DNA from: Armatimonadota bacterium
GTDB lineage: Bacteria; Armatimonadota; HRBIN16
Length of the DNA stretch: 64,000 nt
Assembly: GCA_963677485.1 (NCBI GenBank)
Contig: OY781964.1
Span: forward strand, 3,648,001-3,712,000
Direction: 5' to 3'
Shown here: one piece after another, positions 6,792 through 38,938 of the stretch
How the letters are laid out: each line of letters opens with the position of its first letter
Position numbering within the stretch: position 1 is the first letter of the stretch
The notes under the pieces: generated by a model
Database searches by the model: none
What the model was told of the DNA's origin: nothing
Seen by the model: the letters and a program-made list of their open reading frames with translations, nothing else
Position numbers and translations under genes: made by a program

Positions 6792-7256
6792 ATGCAGCCC
6801 ATAGTACGGCATGCCCACACTGGCGATGTGGTGGCCATGCAGCAGCTTATCAATGGCTTTGCCTCGAAAGATGAGATGCTGAGCCGCAGCCTGTCGCAGC
6901 TTTACGAAAACCTGCGCGACTTCTTCGTTGTGGAGTTCGACAACGAGATATGCGGCTGCGCGGCCTTGCACGTGACCTGGAAGGACCTGGCTGAGGTGAA
7001 AAGCCTGGCTGTCGCCCAGTCTGCACAGGGCAAGGGATATGGCCGGATGCTGGTGCAGCGGTGCCTGCAGGAAGCCAAGGTTGTGCGTGTTGATAAGGTG
7101 TTTGCGCTGACATACAAGCCGGAGTTTTTCGTGAAGCTGGGATTTCGCATCTGCGACCGTGCGGAGCTTCCGCGCAAAGTATGGACAGAGTGCGTGCATT
7201 GCCCGAAATTCTATGACTGCCACGAAATCGCTGTGATCACAGAGGTGCCTTCATGA
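6792..7256 (+). CDS. GNAT N-acetyltransferase, short ArgA-like (amino-acid N-acetyltransferase)
   Basis: LYENLRDF, AEVKSLAV, QGKGYG acetyl-CoA motif, LPRKVWTECVHC. Start uncertain (6774-6792). Confidence 0.8.
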   Translation: MQPIVRHAHTGDVVAMQQLINGFASKDEMLSRSLSQLYENLRDFFVVEFDNEICGCAALHVTWKDLAEVKSLAVAQSAQGKGYGRMLVQRCLQEAKVVRVDKVFALTYKPEFFVKLGFRICDRAELPRKVWTECVHCPKFYDCHEIAVITEVPS

Positions 7257-7834
7257 CCCCCAGGTTTATTAGCCTCGAGGGCATAGAGGGCTCTGGTAAA
7301 AGCAGTCTGGCTAAGGCGATCGCTCAGGGATTAGCGGACAGGCAGGTGGGGTGCTGGTTGACAGCCGAGCCGTATGATAAAGCCATCCGAAGTATATTAC
7401 TGGACGGTCGTAAACTGAACGCCGAAGCGGAACTGTTGCTGTTCCTGGCTGATAGAGCGGCCCACCGTGATGAGATACAGGCGCACCTGCAGCAAGGCGA
7501 TTGGGTTGTCTGCGACCGCTACCTCGACAGTACCAATGTGTATCAGGGCTACGCGCGCGGCTTTGAACTGGCCGTAGTGAAGAGCATGAACGCATTCGCA
7601 GCGGCTGATTTGATTCCTGAAGTGACATTGCTGCTTGATTTGCCTGTTGATATCGGCCTTTCACGCCAGGTGGAGCTGAACCGAATAGGGGCTGAGAAGC
7701 TGGCGTTCCATCAGATGGTTCGGGATGGCTTCCTGGCAGAGGCGACACTCAGTCCGTCGCGTTTTAAAATCATTGATGCCACACAGCCAATAGATACCGT
7801 GTTGATGCAAGCTCTTGGATATCTAGGGTTGTAG
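7253..7834 (+). CDS. tmk: Thymidylate kinase
   Basis: EGIEGSGKS P-loop, ELLLFLADRAAH, CDRYLDST..YQG; canonical bacterial Tmk. Confidence 0.92.
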   Translation: MTPRFISLEGIEGSGKSSLAKAIAQGLADRQVGCWLTAEPYDKAIRSILLDGRKLNAEAELLLFLADRAAHRDEIQAHLQQGDWVVCDRYLDSTNVYQGYARGFELAVVKSMNAFAAADLIPEVTLLLDLPVDIGLSRQVELNRIGAEKLAFHQMVRDGFLAEATLSPSRFKIIDATQPIDTVLMQALGYLGL

Positions 7835-28706: not shown

Positions 28707-28893
28707 GTAGGGATGGGCATTGTGGTCAATCGATATCGAGTTATCGTTTGTATGGGCGGTTCGCGAACCGCCCTTCTATCAGGTGCCACGATCTTGCGTG
28801 ACCGCCCGTGCATGTCTGAACCACGGATTACGCGGATGGAACGGATGACACAGATGGTGAGGCCATGCCCATCGGGAGATTAGCGTGCCCAGG
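28707..28893 (+). repeat. Mosaic REP-like cluster
   Basis: gggcggttcgcgaaccgccc palindrome (28750-28774), tgtctgaaccacggattacgcggat unit (28813-28846), atcgggagattagcgtgccc unit (28867-28893). Confidence 0.75.
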
Positions 28894-28933
28894 GGCCTGG
28901 CGACCAGGGTTATAGGACAAGGAGGAAATCATC

Positions 28934-29452
28934 ATGGAAACAATGGATACCTACGAAGCGATCATCTCACGCCGAAGCGTCCGTGACTTCACCTCGCAGG
29001 TGGTGCCAGGCGATCTGGTGGAGATGCTGTTGAGAGCCGCAATGAGGGCGCCATCGGCCGGTAATGAACAAGCGTGGCAGTTCATCGTTGTGAAAGACCG
29101 CGAGCTGCTTAATGCTGTCCCTAGTTTCAGTCCGTATGCGGCGATGTGCCTGACGGCTCCGATGGCCATAGTCGTCTGCGGGGACACCTCACTCGAAAAG
29201 TTTCATGGGTTTTGGATTCAAGACTGTTGCGCTGCCATTGAGAACTTACTTCTGGCGGCCCATGCTTCGGGCTTAGGCGCCGTCTGGACCGCACTCTACC
29301 CAGATGAAGCACGTGTGGAGGGAGCCCGAACGCTGTTCGGCATCCCCGACCATATCATCCCTCTAGCTATTGTACCGGTGGGATATCCAAAACATCAGCC
29401 ATTCCCTTCGCAAACATACCTCCCTGAACGGGTTCATCACGACAGATATTAG
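28934..29452 (+). CDS. Nitroreductase family protein
   Basis: RRSVRDF, APSAGNEQAW, GLGAVW; AGGAGG RBS. Confidence 0.9.
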   Translation: METMDTYEAIISRRSVRDFTSQVVPGDLVEMLLRAAMRAPSAGNEQAWQFIVVKDRELLNAVPSFSPYAAMCLTAPMAIVVCGDTSLEKFHGFWIQDCCAAIENLLLAAHASGLGAVWTALYPDEARVEGARTLFGIPDHIIPLAIVPVGYPKHQPFPSQTYLPERVHHDRY

Positions 29453-29509
29453 CTCGCCCTGCCTCAGCGTGGAGACGGGGAGTTCCGAAATTGCCGCATG
29501 AGGGTGTTT

Positions 29510-29543
29510 TGTTAACGGAATGTTAACTTGTGGTTGGTATAAC
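29510..29543 (+). promoter_or_regulatory. Pho-box-like direct repeat plus -10 element
   Basis: TGTTAAC-ggaa-TGTTAAC (11-bp period) ending 10 bp upstream of the TATAAC hexamer (TG-extended). Confidence 0.55.
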
Positions 29544-29607
29544 GAAACACTACCCGTGATCGTACGGGTATAAATAGTATGAACACCATACCAATTGAGG
29601 TGGCACA

Positions 29608-30306
29608 TTGCTGAAACCGAACACCTATCCGGGTAAGTTGATCATCGTTGAAGGTATAGACGGCAGCGGGAAATCAACCCAGATCGATCTGCTGTGCAAA
29701 TGGCTGAAAAGCCAGGGCCGCGCCGTCTACTTTAGCGAATGGAACTCCTCTCCGCTGGTGAAAGACACCACGCGGCTTGGGAAAAAGAAGAAGCTCTTTA
29801 CCCCTACGACCTTTAGCCTGCTCCAATGCACCGACTTTGCAGAACGATGGCAAAATCACATTCTGCCCCTACTCAAAGCAGGTGCCGTGGTGATGGCTGA
29901 CCGATACGCTTTTACTGCATTTGCGCGCGATACGGCACGCGGGGTTGACCCTGAGTGGGTTCGGAAGGTCTACTCCTTTGCCGTCCAGCCTGATATCGCC
30001 TTTTATTTCCGTGTTCCCCTTGATGTGGCCGTCGGCCGAATTCTGGGAGCTCGGGCAAGCATCAAATACTACGAAGCGGGTATGGATATAGGCCTGTCTG
30101 ATGACATCGTGGAGAGCTTCAAACTCTTCCAGGGGCGGATCATGGGAGCCTACGACAGCATGGTTGAGGAGTTTGGCCTGACTGTGGTCGACGGCACGCT
30201 GTCCATCAAAGAACAGCAGGACCAGGTGCGTGATATCTTCAACAAGACACTGGGAGACTGGCAGGGTCTGAGTGTACCTGCGATTTCGGCAGGGGGTGCA
30301 TTATGA
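29608..30306 (+). CDS. Thymidylate-kinase-fold protein (putative PPK3-like polyphosphate kinase, catalytic subunit)
   Basis: EGIDGSGKST P-loop, DRY, YYEAGMD. Lies in a CHAD/ppx operon, and a canonical tmk is already present at 7253. Confidence 0.75.
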   Translation: MLKPNTYPGKLIIVEGIDGSGKSTQIDLLCKWLKSQGRAVYFSEWNSSPLVKDTTRLGKKKKLFTPTTFSLLQCTDFAERWQNHILPLLKAGAVVMADRYAFTAFARDTARGVDPEWVRKVYSFAVQPDIAFYFRVPLDVAVGRILGARASIKYYEAGMDIGLSDDIVESFKLFQGRIMGAYDSMVEEFGLTVVDGTLSIKEQQDQVRDIFNKTLGDWQGLSVPAISAGGAL

Positions 30307-30989
30307 CAAAGTCGATATATTACGGTGCGGGGATGCCATATCTGGACATCACCGAGCTGAGCGGCAAGCTCATCGTCATCGAAGGGCCGGATGGAGTGGG
30401 GCGTAGCACCCAGGTGGGGCTGCTCCGACAGCAGCTTGAGGAGCGTGGATATGGCGTGATCGACACCGCTATGAGCCGATCGGCACTTACCCAGGCAGGC
30501 ATCGAACAGGCAAAGCAAGGCAATCTGGTACCCCCACTAGCTTTAAGCCTTTTCTATGCGGCTGACTTTGCTGACCGGTTGGAGAACCAGATCATCCCGG
30601 CTTTAAAGGCAGGATTTTGTGTGCTTGCTGACCGCTATTTCTACTCCATTGCAGCGCGTAACATCGTGCGTGGGGCCCAATCTGACTACAGCCTCGATGT
30701 CTACGGCTTCGCACTAAAGCCAGATGTGGTGTTTTATCTGCGTACCGATGTGGAGACGCTGGTGGCTCGGCAGATATACGGTCGCGGGTTGAACTACTGG
30801 GAGTCTGGCATGGACTTAAATTTGGCGGGCGATCTGTATGATAGCTTTAAGGCGTACCAGCAACTCATGCTGGAGCAGTTCGACATTATGACGGCGAAAT
30901 ACGGGTTTGAGACGATTGATGCTACACATGATGCCGGAACTGTCAATTCTGAGATCATGGCCAAACTTGACTTAATACTGGAGGGGTAG
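30303..30989 (+). CDS. Thymidylate-kinase-fold protein with Walker A K->R (putative PPK3-like partner subunit)
   Basis: EGPDGVGRST, DRY, YWESGMD; ATGA-coupled paralog of the upstream gene. Confidence 0.75.
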   Translation: MTKSIYYGAGMPYLDITELSGKLIVIEGPDGVGRSTQVGLLRQQLEERGYGVIDTAMSRSALTQAGIEQAKQGNLVPPLALSLFYAADFADRLENQIIPALKAGFCVLADRYFYSIAARNIVRGAQSDYSLDVYGFALKPDVVFYLRTDVETLVARQIYGRGLNYWESGMDLNLAGDLYDSFKAYQQLMLEQFDIMTAKYGFETIDATHDAGTVNSEIMAKLDLILEG

Positions 30990-30993
30990 TTTC

Positions 30994-32019
30994 ATGGCGA
31001 TAGACGATGGCTTCCGGCTTTTTGCATCTGAGTGCCTGCTGAAGCGGCTCCAGGCCTTGATGGCCGAACTGGAAGGTGTAAAGAGCAGCGAAGACATCGA
31101 ATACATCCACCGTATGAGGGTGGCCAGCCGCCGTATGCGTTCGGCGCTCAAGGTGTTCGACCCCATGCTGAGTGCCAAACAGCGCAAGCGATGGGCCGCC
31201 GGTATCGGAGATATCACGCGCGCGCTGGGCACCGCCCGCGATTCGGATGTGCAGATCGATGCATTAGAGAAACTCGCAGCGGTCATCACAGATACTGCCG
31301 CCCAGCCCGGCATCGAACGGCTGGAGCTTCGGCTGCGTCAGAGGCGGCGGAAACTTCAGGCGGGTGTCGTAGAAGCCATCACCAATTACGAAGCGAGCGG
31401 ACTGGCGGAAGAGATCAGCGACACGATGCGTCGTTGCCTGGTGGAGTGTCGGCTTCGCGATGTGGAGGCGGTGTCTCCGTGCCTGTTGATGAAAGGGCTT
31501 ACGGAGATATCACTGCGACTTGAGGAGCTGTTAAGCTGGTCAAGCCTGATCGTAAAGCCAGAGAACGTAAGCGAGCTTCACGCGATGAGGATCGCCGCCA
31601 AGCGGTTACGATACACGCTAGAGCTTTTCACGCCAGTGCTGCCAGGAGACGGGAAAGCGCGCCTGGAGCTGGTGAAGGATATTCAGGAACGGCTGGGCGA
31701 CATCCACGACTGCGATGTGTGGCTTGAGCTTCTACCCAGGTTTCTGGACGAGGAACGCCGCGCTACCATGGATTACTACGGGGATACCCGCGGTATGAAG
31801 AACCTTGCGCAGGGCATCAAGATGCTGGGTGACAACAGACGTCAGCATCGTGAGGAGCTCTACGCTGATTTCATGTCAAAGTGGGCCGATTTGGATAAGA
31901 TGCAAACCTGGCCGAGTTTGCGTGCAGAGCTACGTGCCATTGCTTTAACCACCAAACATCCCGCATCACACTCATCCGAACACGCCGAGTCAGACGATGC
32001 GGATAGCCATAATAGCTGA
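30994..32019 (+). CDS. CHAD domain (polyphosphate-binding) protein
   Basis: IHRMRVASRRMRS, LHAMRIAAKRLRY, QERLGDIHDCDV. Confidence 0.9.
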   Translation: MAIDDGFRLFASECLLKRLQALMAELEGVKSSEDIEYIHRMRVASRRMRSALKVFDPMLSAKQRKRWAAGIGDITRALGTARDSDVQIDALEKLAAVITDTAAQPGIERLELRLRQRRRKLQAGVVEAITNYEASGLAEEISDTMRRCLVECRLRDVEAVSPCLLMKGLTEISLRLEELLSWSSLIVKPENVSELHAMRIAAKRLRYTLELFTPVLPGDGKARLELVKDIQERLGDIHDCDVWLELLPRFLDEERRATMDYYGDTRGMKNLAQGIKMLGDNRRQHREELYADFMSKWADLDKMQTWPSLRAELRAIALTTKHPASHSSEHAESDDADSHNS

Positions 32020-32725
32020 TATCCATGGCAACCTGCCAGCCTTGCAAGCAGTCCTCAAGGATGTAGAGGAGGCAGGTGTGGAGCAGGTGTGGAACCTGGG
32101 CGACAACGTGGGGTACGGTCCATATCCCAATGAGGTTGTTGAGCAATTGCAGCAGATCGGTGCGATTAATGTGCTGGGGAACTACGACAAGAAAGCATTT
32201 ACCATGCAGGATCGTCCTAAGAGTTGGCGTGCCCGTAAAGACCCCATAAAACTGCGGCTTCTTGAACTCGCCGCAGAACAGACCTCACCCGAATACCAGC
32301 AGTGGAGCCTCAGACAGCCCGAAATCATCACCCAGCAAATGGACCAGCGCTGGGTGTTGATGACACACTGCAGTCCTCGCTCCCAAAAACAGGCGATCAC
32401 GCCTCAGACACCGAACGCGGAGTTGAAGGCAATATCCACAGGCATCGAAGCGGCCCTGATCGTGATGGGCCATTCTCACCAGACGATGTGGCGGCAATTA
32501 GCCGGGATTAGCTGGGCCAACCCTGGCAGTGTGGGCCGACAACATGACGGCGACCCTCGGGCACGATACGCCTTGCTGGATATGGGGCCAAAGAGTCTTC
32601 GCTTTTATCCGAAAATTGTGGAATATGATATTGATGCACTGTGCAAGCGGTGTAAGGAGCTGGGCTATCCCAAGCCTGTGCTTCAAGTATTTACTCTCGG
32701 AAGAGGGTTGGAATGGATAGTGTAA
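31997..32725 (+). CDS. Calcineurin-like metallophosphoesterase (YfcE-like)
   Basis: DIHGN, GDNVGYG, GNYD, GHSH, NPGSVG. Confidence 0.9.
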   Translation: MRIAIIADIHGNLPALQAVLKDVEEAGVEQVWNLGDNVGYGPYPNEVVEQLQQIGAINVLGNYDKKAFTMQDRPKSWRARKDPIKLRLLELAAEQTSPEYQQWSLRQPEIITQQMDQRWVLMTHCSPRSQKQAITPQTPNAELKAISTGIEAALIVMGHSHQTMWRQLAGISWANPGSVGRQHDGDPRARYALLDMGPKSLRFYPKIVEYDIDALCKRCKELGYPKPVLQVFTLGRGLEWIV

Positions 32726-34108
32726 ATGGCAACCAACATAAGGCAATTGAAGTTCGGAATATCCAGTGTTCGAGGTGTTGTGGGCGAGGCTTTAACCCCT
32801 GAACTTGCTGTGAACCTGAGCTGCGCTCTGGGTGCCTGGGCTGATGGCGGAAAAGTCATCGTCGCCCGAGACACCAGGCGTAGTTCCCAAATGCTCTACA
32901 ATGCAGTCACCTGCGGACTGATCTCCAGTGGCTGTGAAGTGATCGACATCGGCATCACCACTACTCCGCTGGCGAGTTGGAGTGTGCGTGACCAGAAAGC
33001 AGCGGCTGGCGTGTGTATCACCGGCAGCCACAATGACGCCCGTTGGAACGCGTTGAAGTTCCTGGACGCTGATGGCGCATTGATGAACTCCGCCAAGAGC
33101 GAAGAGCTGCTTGACATTTACCACGCGGCAGCGTTCTTAAACACCCGCTGGGACGGTCTGAAACCGGTCAGCACGTGCGAAGGCGTGCCCGATGGCTACA
33201 TCGATAACCTGCTGAGCCTGGTGGATGCAGAGGCGATATCCAAGCGAAAGTTCCGCGTCGCAGTGGATTTCTGCAACGGCGCGGCCATTGAGCCGTTCAA
33301 AAAGCTGTTCGAGAAGATCAACGCTACCTTACTTCCTCTCAATGACCAGCCAACGGGTGAATTTGCCCACATGCCCACACCGACTCCGGTGAACATGCGT
33401 CAGTTGGCCGCTTTGATGCCGCACCTCAACGCCGACTTGGGTGCTGTGGTGAACATCGATGGCGACCGATGTGCGTTTCTCACGGAATCTGGGCAGGCCC
33501 TCTCTGAGGAATACACGCTGCCGATGGCTGTGATGGGGCTGATCGGGAATCGGCCCGGCGGGGTGGTGACCAACCTGAGTTCCTCCAGCATGATCGATGC
33601 TGTGGTCAAACAGTCTGGTGGTCGCGTGGTGCGCACATCGGTGGGTGAGGCCTCGGTTATCAGCGCGGCCGTGACTCGCGGAATGCGCTTGGCAGGAGAG
33701 GGCAGCGGCACCATCGCAGCACCACCGGAAGTGAACAGTTTTGACGCCATACTGGCACTGCTGAGTGTTCTGGAGCAGTTAGCTTTGGGAAATGTGAGCA
33801 TGAGCCAACTGGCTTCATCGCTTCCCGTCTCGCATATGTGCAAGGGGCAGGTGGAGATGCCGCCCACCAGCAGCTACCAACTGCTGGACCTTCTGAGGAA
33901 ATACTACGAAGATGAGCAGCCAAGTATGCAGGATGGTATCCGGGTGGAGTGGCCAGATAAGTGGCTGCATATCCGGGCCAGCAACACTGAACCGCTGCTT
34001 AGAATGATCTGCGAGGCTGACACGCTCGAGAAAGCTCAACAGCTTTACTCTGAGACGATGAGCCTTGTGAACCGCTTCGCTGCCTCTGGAGGAGTAAGAC
34101 ATGCCTAA
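32726..34108 (+). CDS. Alpha-D-phosphohexomutase family protein, degenerate metal loop
   Basis: ITGSHND phosphoserine loop, NIDGDR (Asn for the first Asp), GEGSG, RASNTEP. Confidence 0.85.
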   Translation: MATNIRQLKFGISSVRGVVGEALTPELAVNLSCALGAWADGGKVIVARDTRRSSQMLYNAVTCGLISSGCEVIDIGITTTPLASWSVRDQKAAAGVCITGSHNDARWNALKFLDADGALMNSAKSEELLDIYHAAAFLNTRWDGLKPVSTCEGVPDGYIDNLLSLVDAEAISKRKFRVAVDFCNGAAIEPFKKLFEKINATLLPLNDQPTGEFAHMPTPTPVNMRQLAALMPHLNADLGAVVNIDGDRCAFLTESGQALSEEYTLPMAVMGLIGNRPGGVVTNLSSSSMIDAVVKQSGGRVVRTSVGEASVISAAVTRGMRLAGEGSGTIAAPPEVNSFDAILALLSVLEQLALGNVSMSQLASSLPVSHMCKGQVEMPPTSSYQLLDLLRKYYEDEQPSMQDGIRVEWPDKWLHIRASNTEPLLRMICEADTLEKAQQLYSETMSLVNRFAASGGVRHA

Positions 34109-35462
34109 ACCATCATCTTTGAAAATCGGAGTATCGGGTGTCCGCGGAATTGTAGGTGAAAGCCTCTCTCCGCAACTGGTCACCACTTTTGCCGCTGCGT
34201 TCGGATGCCATACCGGCCGAGGACCCATCCTGGTAGGCACCGACAGCCGTCCCAGCCGTGAAATGGTGAAGCGCGGTGTCATCGCCGGACTGCTGAGTGT
34301 GGGCTGCCAGCCCATCGACCTTGGCGTATTGCCCGTACCGGCCCTGCAGCACCATATTCGCCAGGTGAAGGCGCTGGGGGGCATCTGTGTGACCGCCAGC
34401 CATAACCCTGTGGAGTGGAACGCGTTGAAGTTCTTTGCCGAGGACGGCATTCTGCTGAGGCCGAACCAGGCTGCAGAGCTGACCGACCTTTACCATCAGG
34501 GTGTGTTCCCCAGAGTGCCTGCGAACGAGATCGCGGAGCTGTTATACGACGACACCGCTATCCTGAAGCATTGCGAATCTGTGCTCAGCCATGTGGATGT
34601 GGAGGCGATACGGGCGAAACACTTCCGCGTGGTATGCGACTGCTGCAACGGAGCCGCCAGCATCGCCACCCCCATGTTCTTAAAAATGCTGGGCTGCGAT
34701 GTGGTAGCGATTAATGACAACATTGACCTGCCGTTCCCGCATAACCCGGAACCTGTGCCTGAGAACCTTGGGCAGATTTGCGATGCCGTGAAGAAATACG
34801 GTGGCGAGGTGGGCTTTGTTCAGGACGCCGATGCGGACCGATTGGCATTAGTCAATGAGTTCGGCAATCCGGTGGGCGAGGAGTATACGCTGGCGTTGGG
34901 CATTTTGCATATAGCCGGCCGATCACAAAATCCTGTGGTGGTGAACATCAGCAGCAGTCGCTTAAGCGAAGACGCCGCAGCACTCTGCGGAGTGCCGATG
35001 GTTTATGCCAAAGTGGGCGAAGTGAACGTGGTGCAGAAGATGCTGGAGCTGGGTGCCATCGTGGGTGGCGAAGGCAACGGTGGTCTGATCGTGCCCGCCA
35101 TCAACCCTTGCCGTGACTCCTTCGTGGGGATGGCATTGATGCTGGAGGCACTGGCCATGAGCGGTTTGAGCATGAGCGAATATGCCAACAAGCTGCCGCA
35201 TTACGCTCTGGCTCGCCGCAAGATCGGCATTCCTGCTCGGTTGATACAACCTGCTCTGGCGAAGCTTCAGGAACACTACGCTGGTCAGACGATGAATTTC
35301 ATCGATGGTCTGAAAATACTGTGGCCGGATGCTTGGCTGCAGGCCCGCGGCAGCAACACTGAGCCTATCATGAGGGTCATCGCGGAGGCTCCCACTCAAC
35401 AAAAGGCCGATGAGCTGGCTGACGGCGGTTTACGTGTGATTGCGGAGATGCAGAATGGCTGA
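34101..35462 (+). CDS. Alpha-D-phosphohexomutase (PGM/PMM/GlmM-like)
   Basis: TASHNP, DADADR, GEGNGG, RGSNTEP. Confidence 0.88.
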   Translation: MPKPSSLKIGVSGVRGIVGESLSPQLVTTFAAAFGCHTGRGPILVGTDSRPSREMVKRGVIAGLLSVGCQPIDLGVLPVPALQHHIRQVKALGGICVTASHNPVEWNALKFFAEDGILLRPNQAAELTDLYHQGVFPRVPANEIAELLYDDTAILKHCESVLSHVDVEAIRAKHFRVVCDCCNGAASIATPMFLKMLGCDVVAINDNIDLPFPHNPEPVPENLGQICDAVKKYGGEVGFVQDADADRLALVNEFGNPVGEEYTLALGILHIAGRSQNPVVVNISSSRLSEDAAALCGVPMVYAKVGEVNVVQKMLELGAIVGGEGNGGLIVPAINPCRDSFVGMALMLEALAMSGLSMSEYANKLPHYALARRKIGIPARLIQPALAKLQEHYAGQTMNFIDGLKILWPDAWLQARGSNTEPIMRVIAEAPTQQKADELADGGLRVIAEMQNG

Positions 35463-37050
35463 GAACTCGTCTCCGGACTTCGGCCGTGTAGTGAGCTTCA
35501 TGGATGTGGGCACCAACTCAGCCCGACTGCTGATGGTGCGCATCAATCCGAACCACTCCTATACCGTGCTGACCTCACAAAAGGAGGTTGTGCGGCTGGG
35601 TGAGGGGGAGTTCAGTGACGACGAAGTGTTACAACCGGAGGCGATGCAGCGCGCTTTGGATGTGCTTAGCCGATTCTCTGCTTTGGCTAAGCACTACCAG
35701 GCAACGGAAGTGATCGCAGTGGCGACATCCGCCACCCGTGAAGCGAATAACCAAGCGGACTTCCTGAAGATGCTGATGAAGGAGTGCAACCTTGAGCTTC
35801 GGGTCATCAGCGGAAAAGAGGAGGCTCGCCTGGTCTACCTGGGAGTCTCCAGCGGAGTCGATCTTGCAGATACCAAAGCGATGTTTATCGACATCGGAGG
35901 CGGTTCCACGGAGCTGGCGTATGGCGGCCAGCACCAATATGATTACCTTGACATGTTCAAGCTGGGTGCCATACGGCTGACGCAGCTCTATTTCCTGCCG
36001 GGTGAGCCGGAACCAGTGGCTCCATCGCGGTATGCGCTGATTAAGAACTATGTGCGTAACACGGCGATTCGTGCCATCAACCGGCTGAGGGAAGAAGACA
36101 CCAGCATCTGCTACGGTTCGTCCGGCACCATCATGAACATTGGCGAAATGATCATGCAACGGTCCGAGAAGCGCAGGCTGGTGCGGGATGATGTGGTCAG
36201 CCTGGAGCAGATCAAGGAGCTGGCGGCGCATCTCTGCTCACTTTCGCTGGAGGACCGGCGCAAGGTGCCGGGCATGAACCCGGAACGGGCGGATATCATC
36301 GTATCGGGCATCGCCGTGCTGGAAACATTGTTGACCGAAATCGGTGTGAAGCAGATATGCATCAGCGAACGCAGCCTGCGAGACGGCCTGCTGGTGGACT
36401 ACCTGGGCCGTATGGGCATCGGTGCTTACGCGGAGCAGATGAGCACCCGCGAACGCAGCGTGCTGCAGTTGGCTCGGAGTTGCCACTTTGATGAGCACCA
36501 TGCCAACACCGTGGCTGCGTTGTCGGATCAGATGTTTGAAGGGCTGCGGGAGTGCCGGCTTCTTACTCTTGGCGAGGAGGAGCGTGAGCTGCTTCATTAT
36601 GCCTGCCTGCTGCACGACATCGGCACCTTCCTGAGCTACACCAACCACGACCAGCATAGCTATTACCTCGTGAAGAACACCGATATGCTGGGCTTCGACC
36701 AAAAGGAGCTGGAGATGATGGCGGTGGTGTCGATGTTCCACCGAAAAAGCTGGCCCAAGAGGAGCTGCCCGGAGCTGGCTGAGTTTGATGATGAACGGCT
36801 GGCTTGCGTGCGCCAGTTAGCGGTGATTTTACGGATTGCGGAGAGCCTGGACCGCACCCATATGGACGTGGTGAAGCAGGTGCGCATTGAGCCGATTGAC
36901 AAGAAGCGGGTGGCTCTTATGGCCCGCGCTGAGGGCGATTGCCAACTGGAAGCCTGGGGCACCAGTAACCATGTGAACAGCTTCCGCAAGGCCTTCGGCC
37001 GCAGCGTGGAGCTTCGCATCGAGCAGGTGGACGCCCCCAGCGCATCGTAG
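35455..37050 (+). CDS. ppx: Exopolyphosphatase Ppx/GppA with HD domain
   Basis: DVGTNS, ATSATREA, ISGKEEA, DIGGGSTE, LHDIG. Confidence 0.9.
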   Translation: MAENSSPDFGRVVSFMDVGTNSARLLMVRINPNHSYTVLTSQKEVVRLGEGEFSDDEVLQPEAMQRALDVLSRFSALAKHYQATEVIAVATSATREANNQADFLKMLMKECNLELRVISGKEEARLVYLGVSSGVDLADTKAMFIDIGGGSTELAYGGQHQYDYLDMFKLGAIRLTQLYFLPGEPEPVAPSRYALIKNYVRNTAIRAINRLREEDTSICYGSSGTIMNIGEMIMQRSEKRRLVRDDVVSLEQIKELAAHLCSLSLEDRRKVPGMNPERADIIVSGIAVLETLLTEIGVKQICISERSLRDGLLVDYLGRMGIGAYAEQMSTRERSVLQLARSCHFDEHHANTVAALSDQMFEGLRECRLLTLGEEERELLHYACLLHDIGTFLSYTNHDQHSYYLVKNTDMLGFDQKELEMMAVVSMFHRKSWPKRSCPELAEFDDERLACVRQLAVILRIAESLDRTHMDVVKQVRIEPIDKKRVALMARAEGDCQLEAWGTSNHVNSFRKAFGRSVELRIEQVDAPSAS

Positions 37051-37253
37051 GTGCTTCGCGTACGGTGCCCTGACCGGATTCCTAGACGCGGATAGGGGAT
37101 TGTCTGAACCGAGGGTTACGCGGATAGAGCGGATGGGGGATTATCTGAACCACGGATTACACGGATTGAACGGATAGGTTCGGATGGGAGCGAGGCCAAT
37201 CGGGTGATTGGCGTGCAGGGTCTGTCGTGTAAGGGCGGTTCGCGAACCGCCCT
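37047..37253 (+). repeat. Mosaic REP-like cluster
   Basis: Two tctgaacc..ggattac.cggat units (37101, 37142), gccaatcgggtgattggc (37193) and gggcggttcgcgaaccgccc (37229); homologous to 43281-43493. Confidence 0.75.
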
Positions 37254-37327
37254 TCTTGCATGCGACATGGCCATTTGTGCCTCATTATGTCAACCGCTCC
37301 GAATCGTCATCAACTGTAACCTTCCGG

Positions 37328-37388
37328 GCACCCACGGAGTGGGTAAGATTCATTACAGCCAGGGGTGAGCGCAGCGATACCCCTGGAA
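37328..37388 (+). repeat. Dispersed repeat (copy 1 of 2)
   Basis: gcacccacggagtgggta...ttacagccag.ggtgagcg.agcgatacccctggaa, near-identical to 63907-63967. Confidence 0.75.
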
Positions 37389-37573
37389 TACGTCGAAATA
37401 TCCTTACCCTCGAATGAGGGTCGTTTCATCCATAATCTCCCCAGCCTTGACTTGCCACGTTGGAAAGGGTATAACCAAATCGGAGCGTCACACGACATAT
37501 GTGTCCGCTGCACATAATTACTGAAAGCAGCCAATGGAGCCTTCTGGGCAAATAACACACAAGGATACACCCG

Positions 37574-38317
37574 ATGAATCAACAAGAACCGCACACACCA
37601 GCGCGTTGGGAATCATGGCGATCACGCTTTGAAATCCTACTTGCCCACATACCAGAGCAGTTTTTTTTGAGAGTATGTGAAATCTGGAAAATGCAGTTCC
37701 GGGTCCATGACGAAGTGTTTGAGGCGGTTTGCGATGGCCACTTTAGAACCAATGAACCATTACTGAGTTTTTCGTTTTCGGGACATTGGTGTGTTGACGG
37801 TGATAACACTATGCTTGATGATGTTATCGACATTAACTGTATTCACAGTGAGTCGTTCACTAGCGACATTGATATTGCCACGATGGGGCCAAACTCGCTC
37901 AATCGCGAACACCGTTATGACTGTGTCTGGGGTTGGCGTAGAATGCGACTTGATGAAGTATGGCAGGATGAGGTTGATCAGATATGGGACCGATCGGCGC
38001 AGTTGTTGAGTCAGATGCCATATTTAGCCGTTCGGTCACTGAGCAGTCCACTCAGCTTTTGTTATGCTGATGTGGTGTCGCACAAAGTCGATCATCTGTA
38101 TGATGATGAATTGGCAAGCAAATTCAACTGTCCAACATTTCACGCTCAGTGGGAGCTCGTTGGCACAGATGCAGACCACGCGGTTGTGGTGAGAATCACC
38201 AGCTTTGCCCTTATAGGTGCGAACTGGGGTGATGATCCACTGTTAGTTCAGCGTAGTGCAGAGCTCCCATGCACTCGGGGAGTGCATGGGAAGACAAATA
38301 TTGTCAGTAGAGTGTAA
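37574..38317 (+). CDS. Hypothetical protein
   Basis: 247-aa ORF with AAGGA RBS; appears more AT-rich than its neighbours. Confidence 0.55.
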   Translation: MNQQEPHTPARWESWRSRFEILLAHIPEQFFLRVCEIWKMQFRVHDEVFEAVCDGHFRTNEPLLSFSFSGHWCVDGDNTMLDDVIDINCIHSESFTSDIDIATMGPNSLNREHRYDCVWGWRRMRLDEVWQDEVDQIWDRSAQLLSQMPYLAVRSLSSPLSFCYADVVSHKVDHLYDDELASKFNCPTFHAQWELVGTDADHAVVVRITSFALIGANWGDDPLLVQRSAELPCTRGVHGKTNIVSRV

Positions 38318-38419: not shown

Positions 38420-38938
38420 TTGAAGCTAAACAAAGTCGTCATGCTGGCAGTGTTGGTTGTTGCTGCATCTGCGATATTCAACCCATTGATGGAGATGTTC
38501 CGGAATAAACATACTCACATCTATCTTCCTGGAGGCTATGAACTATATTCCCTTCATGGAATCAGAATGTCGTGGAGACCTTCTTCGGAAGAATTGAAGT
38601 TGGTGGCTAACAATTCGGACATAGAATTTCCAGATAAGAGAACGATAGGTCCAAATATCGATGGATATCGTGCTTACAAAAATGTCATAACCGGCCACAT
38701 CAGACCTTTTATCGGCGAACCAACCCAGGAGATCGAGTTTTCTCCTTCCGTAGAAAAACGGACAGGGTATTTTATCGTAGAAATCGACACCAAGAAGGTG
38801 TACGGTGGGTTGGGCAAGCGAGATTGGATCAGGATGCTCAAAACATATGGAATTGATAAGGAACCTGCATTACGCAGGTTTTCCTGGCGAGATCAGAACT
38901 CAAGGCTTACTATTCCTCAAGCTGAAGAACCAAAATAG
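38420..38938 (+). CDS. Hypothetical exported/membrane-anchored protein (DUF3997-like)
   Basis: N-terminal hydrophobic helix; LPGGYEL...IGPNIDGY...YFIV....KKVYGGL pattern. Confidence 0.55.
   Translation: MKLNKVVMLAVLVVAASAIFNPLMEMFRNKHTHIYLPGGYELYSLHGIRMSWRPSSEELKLVANNSDIEFPDKRTIGPNIDGYRAYKNVITGHIRPFIGEPTQEIEFSPSVEKRTGYFIVEIDTKKVYGGLGKRDWIRMLKTYGIDKEPALRRFSWRDQNSRLTIPQAEEPK

Follow-up and report, generated by a model that had tools for sequence, protein, structure and literature searches.

A probable PPK3-type polyphosphate operon in an Armatimonadota bacterium and the phosphohexomutase pair found within it

The closest described system is the polyphosphate (polyP) kinase PPK3 of Sulfolobus acidocaldarius, in which Saci_2019 (cPPK3) and Saci_2020 (rPPK3) form an alpha2beta2 enzyme (Hofmann et al., J Biol Chem 2026; PMC12995831). 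Both proteins are annotated as dTMP kinases, and their genes belong to the operon sixA-ppx-saci_2019-saci_2020-CHAD. The paper also predicts bacterial PPK3 operons with PPX, CHAD and Pst (section 8, Fig. 5), and its abstract places PPK3 in "a few bacteria". Here, we describe a cluster of seven genes at positions 29608–37050 of a 64,000-nucleotide (nt) stretch from an Armatimonadota bacterium (OY781964.1, positions 3,648,001–3,712,000; hereafter the window, in whose positions feature coordinates are given). The cluster begins with two paralogous genes of the thymidylate kinase (Tmk) fold, here named cK and rK. The best overall explanation of the cluster, and a likely one, is that it is a bacterial polyphosphate operon of the PPK3 type. 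Both the PPK3 family and operons of this kind in bacteria have been published before, and the cluster is a variant of that known family; what is new is a Lys-to-Arg signature of the partner subunit, the breadth of the family among bacteria, a six-gene core with a metallophosphoesterase (MPE) and an HD-domain gene, a complementarity of PPK1 and PPK3, a candidate Pho box and a genus-specific insertion of two mutases.

The seven open reading frames (ORFs) all lie on the plus strand, and their junctions measure, in gene order, −4, +4, −23, 0, −8 and −23 nt, with no positive gap above 4 nt. Should PPX begin at the ATG at 35455, with GGAG on its 5′ side, the last junction would be −8 nt. This arrangement had been claimed in a sequence-only reading of the window and agrees with the exact ORF coordinates and junctions, as do Pfam and NCBIfam with its assignment of CHAD, phosphoesterase, two mutase and Ppx domains. 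Because the genes overlap or abut, we infer that they are co-transcribed.

The same reading had pointed to an S. acidocaldarius PPK3 made of two subunits annotated as dTMP kinases and encoded beside ppx; the paper exists and agrees with this (PMC12995831). Like the archaeal operon, the window cluster has adjacent Tmk-fold paralogs and runs in the order c, r, CHAD; in both, ppx belongs to the unit and the genome encodes a canonical tmk elsewhere. Its cK is highly similar to the S. tokodaii homologue of cPPK3. It differs in its bacterial host, in the lack of SixA, in the position of ppx at the far end, in the addition of MPE and two phosphohexomutases and in a PPK2 encoded by the same genome. 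With the predicted bacterial operons it shares the pair of dTMP kinase paralogs together with PPX, CHAD and Pst, the last in Chloroflexota loci that follow pstCAB-phoU. In contrast to these predictions, the pst-phoU linkage is missing in the window's class, and the MPE, the HD-only gene and the mutases are unmentioned in the main text of PMC12995831. A more distant comparison is PPK2 (PF03976), likewise a P-loop kinase acting on polyP and nucleotides, of which two-domain forms with an inactive domain are described (bioRxiv version). PPK2 is a different family, however, with nucleotide and polyP sites swapped (PMC12995831).

The gene cK (29608–30306, + strand) encodes 232 amino acids with the P-loop GSGKST and a DRY motif, and is the predicted catalytic PPK3-type subunit. 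Its best PDB match is 2plr/5h70 (E = 1.1e-59), whereas the closest true Tmk chain reaches 9e-14. The second kinase, rK, also matches 2plr best (8e-32), with true Tmk chains at 8e-11 at best. PDB entry 5h70 is STK_15430, the S. tokodaii homologue of cPPK3 (PMC12995831). We then placed both proteins in a quick IQ-TREE phylogeny of 110 rows with SH-aLRT as the sole measure of support. The rows comprised 22 of 81 cK and 21 of 81 rK sequences, hand-picked across taxa and 200–300 residues long, 35 of 150 representative hits, both halves of a natural fusion protein (P0001) and 30 canonical Tmk of the window's phylum. The 80 PPK3-like rows were separated from the 30 canonical Tmk with an SH-aLRT of 100. 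The window's cK fell into a cK clade (97%) and its rK into a separate rK clade (97%), the latter nested inside the c-like radiation. The Sulfolobaceae-type cPPK3 representative P0094 (a 2plr match at 2e-87) also lies inside the PPK3-like clade, with no firmer placement there.

The motifs are in line with the tree. Both window kinases share with canonical Tmk the fold, the P-loop, the DRX motif and the dimer interface. In the group-wise alignment, EWNSS and ARD occupy in cK the positions where canonical Tmk has TrEPgg and YQG, which we take to be the dTMP-site motifs. A lid insertion of ~15 residues relative to Tmk is common to both paralogs (KYYEAGMD in cK, YWESGMD in rK). All 81 cK rows have GIDGSGKST, and all 81 have D-R-[YF]. 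Across a 78-row alignment K22, K59, R80, R99, R107, R111 and R144 are invariant, and the basic residues K59, R80, R107, R111 and R144 are candidates for a polyP cleft. On these grounds, the membership of cK in the PPK3 family is solid.

These results bear on the database annotation, by which both genes would encode dTMP or other nucleoside monophosphate kinases that merely neighbour polyP genes. Pfam Thymidylate_kin does match both proteins (76.2 bits for cK, 70.9 bits for rK), TIGR00041 gives cK 83.2 bits, just below its cut-off of 83.25, and all named homologues are annotated as dTMP kinases. Nevertheless, a separate tmk at 7253–7834 (+ strand, outside the operon; PF02223 130.5 bits), with TAEP and YQG motifs, groups with canonical Tmk in the tree, in agreement with the sequence-only reading, and is the housekeeping gene. 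The fully supported split from canonical Tmk in the tree, the replaced dTMP-site motifs and the synteny with pst-phoU, CHAD and PPX all speak against the annotation, and neither Saci_2019 nor Saci_2020 had dTMP kinase activity (PMC12995831). We regard a pair of ordinary monophosphate kinases as very improbable. The proposal of a PPK3-like polyP module, for which the sequence-only reading had called for a kinase phylogeny, is thus borne out by the 2plr match and the clade split.

The tree further hints that the operon may have been horizontally transferred, because the phyla interleave in the kinase tree while the host's Tmk points to Armatimonadota. Both window kinases fall among sequences of the Anaerolineae type, and the pair of a Chthonomonadales locus (L050) sits elsewhere. 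The nearest named relatives of the window kinases are Anaerolineaceae, whereas the housekeeping Tmk has its named relatives in Armatimonadota, Fimbriimonadaceae and Chthonomonas. A 97%-identical rK carries the label "Armatimonadota bacterium".

In order to assess the conservation of the pair we scanned species-representative genomes, where at least 590 stretches encode a relative. We examined the best 80 loci, which have 62–92% identity; presence counts of flanking genes were made by tblastn. Among these 80 are 52 from Chloroflexota, 23 from Acidobacteriota and one each from Poribacteria and Armatimonadota, mostly Anaerolineae-type Chloroflexota and Bryobacterales. An rK gene directly follows cK in all 77 loci with at least 800 nt of downstream sequence, usually overlapping it by 1–4 nt (4 nt in the window). 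The two genes are also fused in nature, as a c-r fusion in P0001 (labelled Alicyclobacillaceae) and as c-r-HD/Ppx-GppA_III fusions in P0009, P0018, P0025 and P0145. A metagenome scan with P0094 returned a single locus of 32% identity, which was irrelevant, and no archaeal rPPK3.

We also modelled the cK-rK complex. The model favours binding, with an ipSAE of 0.67 (best of three controls 0.00), a mark attained by 58 of 80 solved complexes and by 2 of 110 mismatched pairs. The interface is Tmk-dimer-like, and since Tmk dimers are already solved, this pass may partly reflect the model's memory of them. Contacts are at least 95% concordant between runs, and the partner has a pLDDT of at least 85. 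The modelled interface involves residues 48–83 and 111–124 of cK and 8–13, 62–95 and 129–136 of rK, which correspond to the homologous Tmk-dimer surface and the N-terminal motif of rK described below.

The gene rK (30303–30989, + strand; 228 amino acids) is a PPK3 partner by position and, as far as its sequence tells, by phylogeny. Its Walker-A Lys is replaced by Arg (GVGRST in the window; the intact GSGKST of cK and this variant had both been noted before, and both P-loops were confirmed). The pattern G-x-D-x-V-G-R-[ST]-T is found in at least 73 of the 81 rK rows, R34 is conserved in at least 90% of a 76-row alignment, and the Lys-to-Arg P-loop also occurs in many representative clusters. An N-terminal extension with the motif FYGxGxPY is specific to rK. 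Of the 81 rows, at least 78 retain D-R-Y (2 gapped, 1 not printed). The partner thus misses one stated feature of rPPK3s, in which the arginine of DRX is replaced (PMC12995831, section 7), and carries the Walker-A Lys-to-Arg change instead. Bacterial partners would then be either inactivated in another way or not inert.

The latter option would make rK a second active or nucleotide-sensing kinase, giving a complex with two activities that uses different nucleotide substrates or senses ATP/ADP. In its favour, rK retains D110-R111-Y112 and lid arginines, and apart from the Arg its P-loop is intact in at least 73 of the 81 rows; since the Lys-to-Arg change is conserved rather than decayed, it suggests that nucleotide binding is retained. 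A Lys-to-Arg change in Walker A, however, usually abolishes phosphoryl transfer. Moreover, the basic residues K59, R107 and R144, invariant in cK, and the WNSS stretch take another form in rK, the P-loop of the r-half of fusion P0001 has decayed further, and the archaeal Saci_2020 is inactive (PMC12995831). We therefore consider an active or sensing rK unlikely and favour a partner that supports catalysis by cK. For annotation, the Lys-to-Arg P-loop is a signature against "dTMP kinase" calls, and it poses the biochemical question of how the partner works.

The genes around the pair vary between lineages. In Chloroflexota loci with enough flanking sequence, PhoU is found immediately upstream of cK in 44 of 45, usually after pstCAB. 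Downstream, CHAD is present in 40 of 46 loci, MPE in 12, a 207-residue HD-only (Ppx-GppA_III) gene in 18 and PPX in one. Acidobacteriota loci have PPX divergently upstream in 11 of 18. Across 66 loci, CHAD follows rK in 42 and MPE occupies a window-like position in 13; the MPE position is also shared with two genomes of the window's class (G041 and G042). The class sample consisted of 18 species genomes from three genera, and cK was present in all three genomes of the window's own genus, in both genomes of a second genus (g35) and in none of the 13 of a third (g2). Own-genus genomes (3/3) have the map cK-rK-CHAD-MPE-PGM1-PGM2-PPX, PGM1 and PGM2 being phosphohexomutases, and both g35 genomes have cK-rK-CHAD-MPE-HD-PPX, an order also found in a Bellilinea locus (L024). 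These comparisons indicate cK-rK-CHAD-MPE-HD-PPX as the ancestral operon. The synteny survey proposed in the sequence-only reading accordingly recovered the full set of seven genes in two further species genomes of the genus, in addition to the c-r core.

Relatives of the catalytic domain also occur in fusions with other phosphate-related modules. P0029, a protist transcriptome protein (EukProt, Ancoracysta twista), has the architecture SPX-kinase-DUF2252, and since its cPPK3-like domain is fused in a protist protein, it suggests that PPK3-like kinases exist beyond prokaryotes. P0041 and P0089 are MFS transporter-kinase-DUF2252/APH fusions, and P0071 and P0097 carry inorganic pyrophosphatase domains.

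Three genes of the six-gene core accompany the kinases in the window. The CHAD-domain protein (30994–32019, + strand; PF05235, 167 bits) is the only CHAD protein encoded in the genome; CHAD domains bind polyP granules. The MPE (31997–32725, + strand) belongs to the YfcE family (Metallophos_2 80 bits; TIGR00040 58.6 bits against a cut-off of 56.25), and its nearest solved relatives are 3rqz and 3qfm, with a weak match of the ApaH type. We view it as a candidate hydrolase of polyP or nucleoside oligophosphates. A precedent for such a role is the yeast endopolyphosphatase Ppn2 of the metallophosphatase superfamily (PMC7381174), to which the MPE is likened by superfamily. The last gene (35440–37050, + strand; 536 amino acids) encodes a Ppx/GppA-family protein, a predicted exopolyphosphatase, with PF02541 at 210 bits and the HD-like domain III, PF21447, at 107 bits. 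It is one of two Ppx-GppA genes of the genome and scores below the NCBIfam equivalog cut-offs, so that it may be either a Ppx or a GppA.

We next considered the other polyP kinases of the host. The genome is a single, complete-looking contig of 97% completeness, and PPK1 (PF02503) is absent from it. In a sample of 41 genomes of the phylum the PPK3 pair was found in 8, PPK1 in 19 and PPK2 in 24. None of the 8 PPK3 genomes has PPK1, and with the class sample added the count is 0 of 12, against 26 of 44 other genomes. As the sampled genomes are related, this contrast overstates their independence and is a pattern, not a statistic. According to PMC12995831, the majority of PPK3 organisms are without PPK1 and PPK2; the lack of both is a tendency and not a strict criterion of PPK3. 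Because PPK3 occurs only in sampled genomes without PPK1, and behind pst-phoU in nearly all of the Chloroflexota loci with sufficient flank, the pair is a candidate for the polyP synthase that is missing in many uncultured bacteria, among them lineages found in engineered or peat environments. PPK3 was described only in 2024–2026, with archaeal biochemistry, and the bacterial pair is common, with a relative encoded on at least 590 species-level contigs.

Several points weigh against a PPK3 operon in the window. The host genome has one PPK2, a separate gene at C1:621951 (PF03976), so of the absence of ppk1 and ppk2, for which the sequence-only reading had suggested a check, only the first half holds; PPK2 is likewise present in 6 of the 8 phylum-sample genomes with PPK3. 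Because the DRX arginine is invariant in rK (76-row alignment), rK may be non-equivalent to the archaeal regulatory subunit, or active. The literature, in the partial coverage available, holds no enzyme assay of any bacterial PPK3 member. Co-transcription is read from the overlaps, and the possible memory of Tmk dimers in the complex model and the relatedness of the sampled genomes count on the same side. In favour of a PPK3 operon are gene content, family placement, synteny and motif patterns, which were established directly.

A mechanism consistent with these data can be outlined, in which enzyme activity and heteromer formation are deduced, as co-transcription and Pho control are. The Tmk-derived P-loop kinase cK would act reversibly, transferring the gamma-phosphate of ATP to polyP and phosphate from polyP to ADP. 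As an obligate partner, rK would bind cK through helices of the Tmk-dimer type and its own N-terminal motif and, by analogy with Saci_2020, activate or regulate cK instead of catalysing. CHAD would tether the system to polyP granules, and the role of MPE and Ppx may be to hydrolyse polyP or the nucleotide by-products of polyP. Transcription would probably start from a PhoB-type promoter. The phosphohexomutases would form a separate two-gene module of one canonical and one degenerate paralog, in place of the small HD-domain gene.

As for the two mutases, the literature, again in partial coverage, holds no report linking phosphohexomutases to polyP operons. PGM1 (32726–34108, + strand) and PGM2 (34101–35462, + strand) are archaeal-type paralogs, "a" and "b" respectively, with 34% identity. 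PGM2 has four domains and canonical catalytic Ser, metal and phosphate-binding loops (TASHNP, DADADR, RGSNTEP), and TIGR03990 matches it with 466.8 bits (cut-off 439). PGM1 has four PGM/PMM domains and the Ser (TGSHND), and its first metal-binding Asp is replaced by Asn (NIDGDR). The best solved relatives are the archaeal phospho-sugar mutases 9du5, 1wqa and 2f7l, which match PGM2, and the phosphopentomutase 9ix8. The "a" copies of tandem pairs (loci L128–L133, from G001, G011, G017, G027, G029 and G037) often have Gly for the catalytic Ser (TAGHNP or TGGHND; 5 of 8 copies examined) and an altered metal loop, and the "b" copies are mostly canonical. Since the catalytic Ser is Gly in the majority of the copies, "a" looks degenerate, and the tandem looks like an enzyme/pseudo-enzyme pair.

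We weighed whether the mutases function within the polyP system, so that polyP turnover is coupled to hexose-phosphate flux, for example through a shared mobilisation of the glycogen and polyP stores or through polyP/PPK3-dependent priming of the mutase phosphoserine. In support, the pair lies inside the operon (junctions of 0 nt for MPE/PGM1 and −8 nt for PGM1/PGM2) in all three species genomes of the genus and, within the class, is limited to that genus, with no match at E ≤ 1e-60 in G041, G042 and G049 of the same class. The pair does not serve housekeeping, because the genome already holds a true GlmM (541 bits) and three more genes of the PGM family, namely two PGM-like genes and an NTP-transferase-PMM fusion. 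An adjacent a-b tandem is present in 6 of the 41 phylum-sample genomes (G000, G001, G011, G017, G027 and G029), and five of these six belong to the 8 PPK3 genomes and one to the 33 others, which keeps the coupling idea alive.

Other results argue against coupling. In the four other PPK3 genomes of the phylum sample that have it, the tandem is either distant from cK or not on the same contig. The neighbourhoods of five free-standing pairs (four from PPK3 genomes, one from G029) shared no Pfam family at more than two loci among 117 ORFs, and no close homologue of PGM2 was found in five PPK3 genomes of other phyla. Of the 66 flanked loci, only L005, with 92% cK identity, has the mutases; they are missing from the other 65. 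A polyP pathway that uses phosphohexomutases did not appear in the literature examined. Thus, we consider it quite unlikely that the mutases work in the polyP system, and rate as equally improbable the specific form in which one Pho-controlled transcript co-ordinates polyP turnover with the mobilisation of storage glycan, or PPK3/polyP keeps the mutase phosphoserine charged. If true, a coupling of polyP to sugar phosphates would be a link not described before. The g35 maps have HD where the window's genus has PGM1-PGM2, and the pair therefore appears to have taken the HD-gene slot, in that genus alone. Since the mutases are a tandem module that also stands alone and was inserted here in one genus, they speak only weakly for a new pathway. 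The sequence-only reading correctly saw them in the operon, as an extension of the polyP module. Unless coupling is shown, the insertion is a minor lineage-specific curiosity.

Upstream of the cluster, we found a Pho-box-like direct repeat, TGTTAAC-GGAA-TGTTAAC, at 29510–29527 (+ strand), with an 11-nt period and a putative regulatory function. It lies 10 nt upstream of a TATAAC hexamer (29538–29543), in the 155-nt gap 5′ of the cluster. The repeat is the sole match at 0–1 mismatch in the 5.22 Mb genome. At two mismatches there are 14 other sites, one of them ~83 nt upstream of pstS; a calculation of ours puts the probability that at least one of 14 random sites would hit the 150-nt pstS promoter at ~4e-4. 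The degenerate pattern [GC]TTAA[CT]N5[GC]TTAA[CT] has three distinct sites in the genome, including the cK promoter and, in the orientation of pstS, the pstS promoter; it was built from the cK and pstS sites and is therefore no independent test. The third site, at genome position 156219, was rejected as a promoter because it is part of a terminator hairpin. The TTAAC/TTAAT cores of the repeat are kept in L005. Because the repeat is common to the cK and pstS promoters, and because of the pst-phoU linkage in other lineages, these data suggest Pho control of the operon. The pstS-pstC/A-pstB-phoU cluster of this genome lies at C1:4424559–4428975, ~750 kb from the polyP operon. A second pstC/A-pstB set is found near C1:4278538–4280923.

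The probable end of the operon is marked by a perfect 12+12 nt palindrome at 37231–37254 (+ strand; AAGGGCGGTTCG/CGAACCGCCCTT), which is terminator-like with a weak T-run. A promoter and terminator consensus scan did not call this palindrome and was uninformative, yielding 5 and 11 sites, respectively, compared with 6.2 and 7.5 in shuffled sequence. Rfam gave no family within 28800–38000. The upstream flank is unrelated (acyltransferase, URO-D-like and nitroreductase genes), and downstream are two plus-strand ORFs without a Pfam match, 37574–38317 (247 amino acids) and 38420–38938 (172 amino acids), followed by ArgJ. A leader hairpin with a 7-bp stem (TACCCGT...ACGGGTA) is located at 29551–29570, between the Pho-box-like repeat and the ribosome-binding site of cK, and was scored by the consensus scan as a terminator-like site on the minus strand. 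Finally, at 37088–37169, between ppx and the palindrome, a 41-nt unit is repeated twice in tandem, the two copies being 83% alike.

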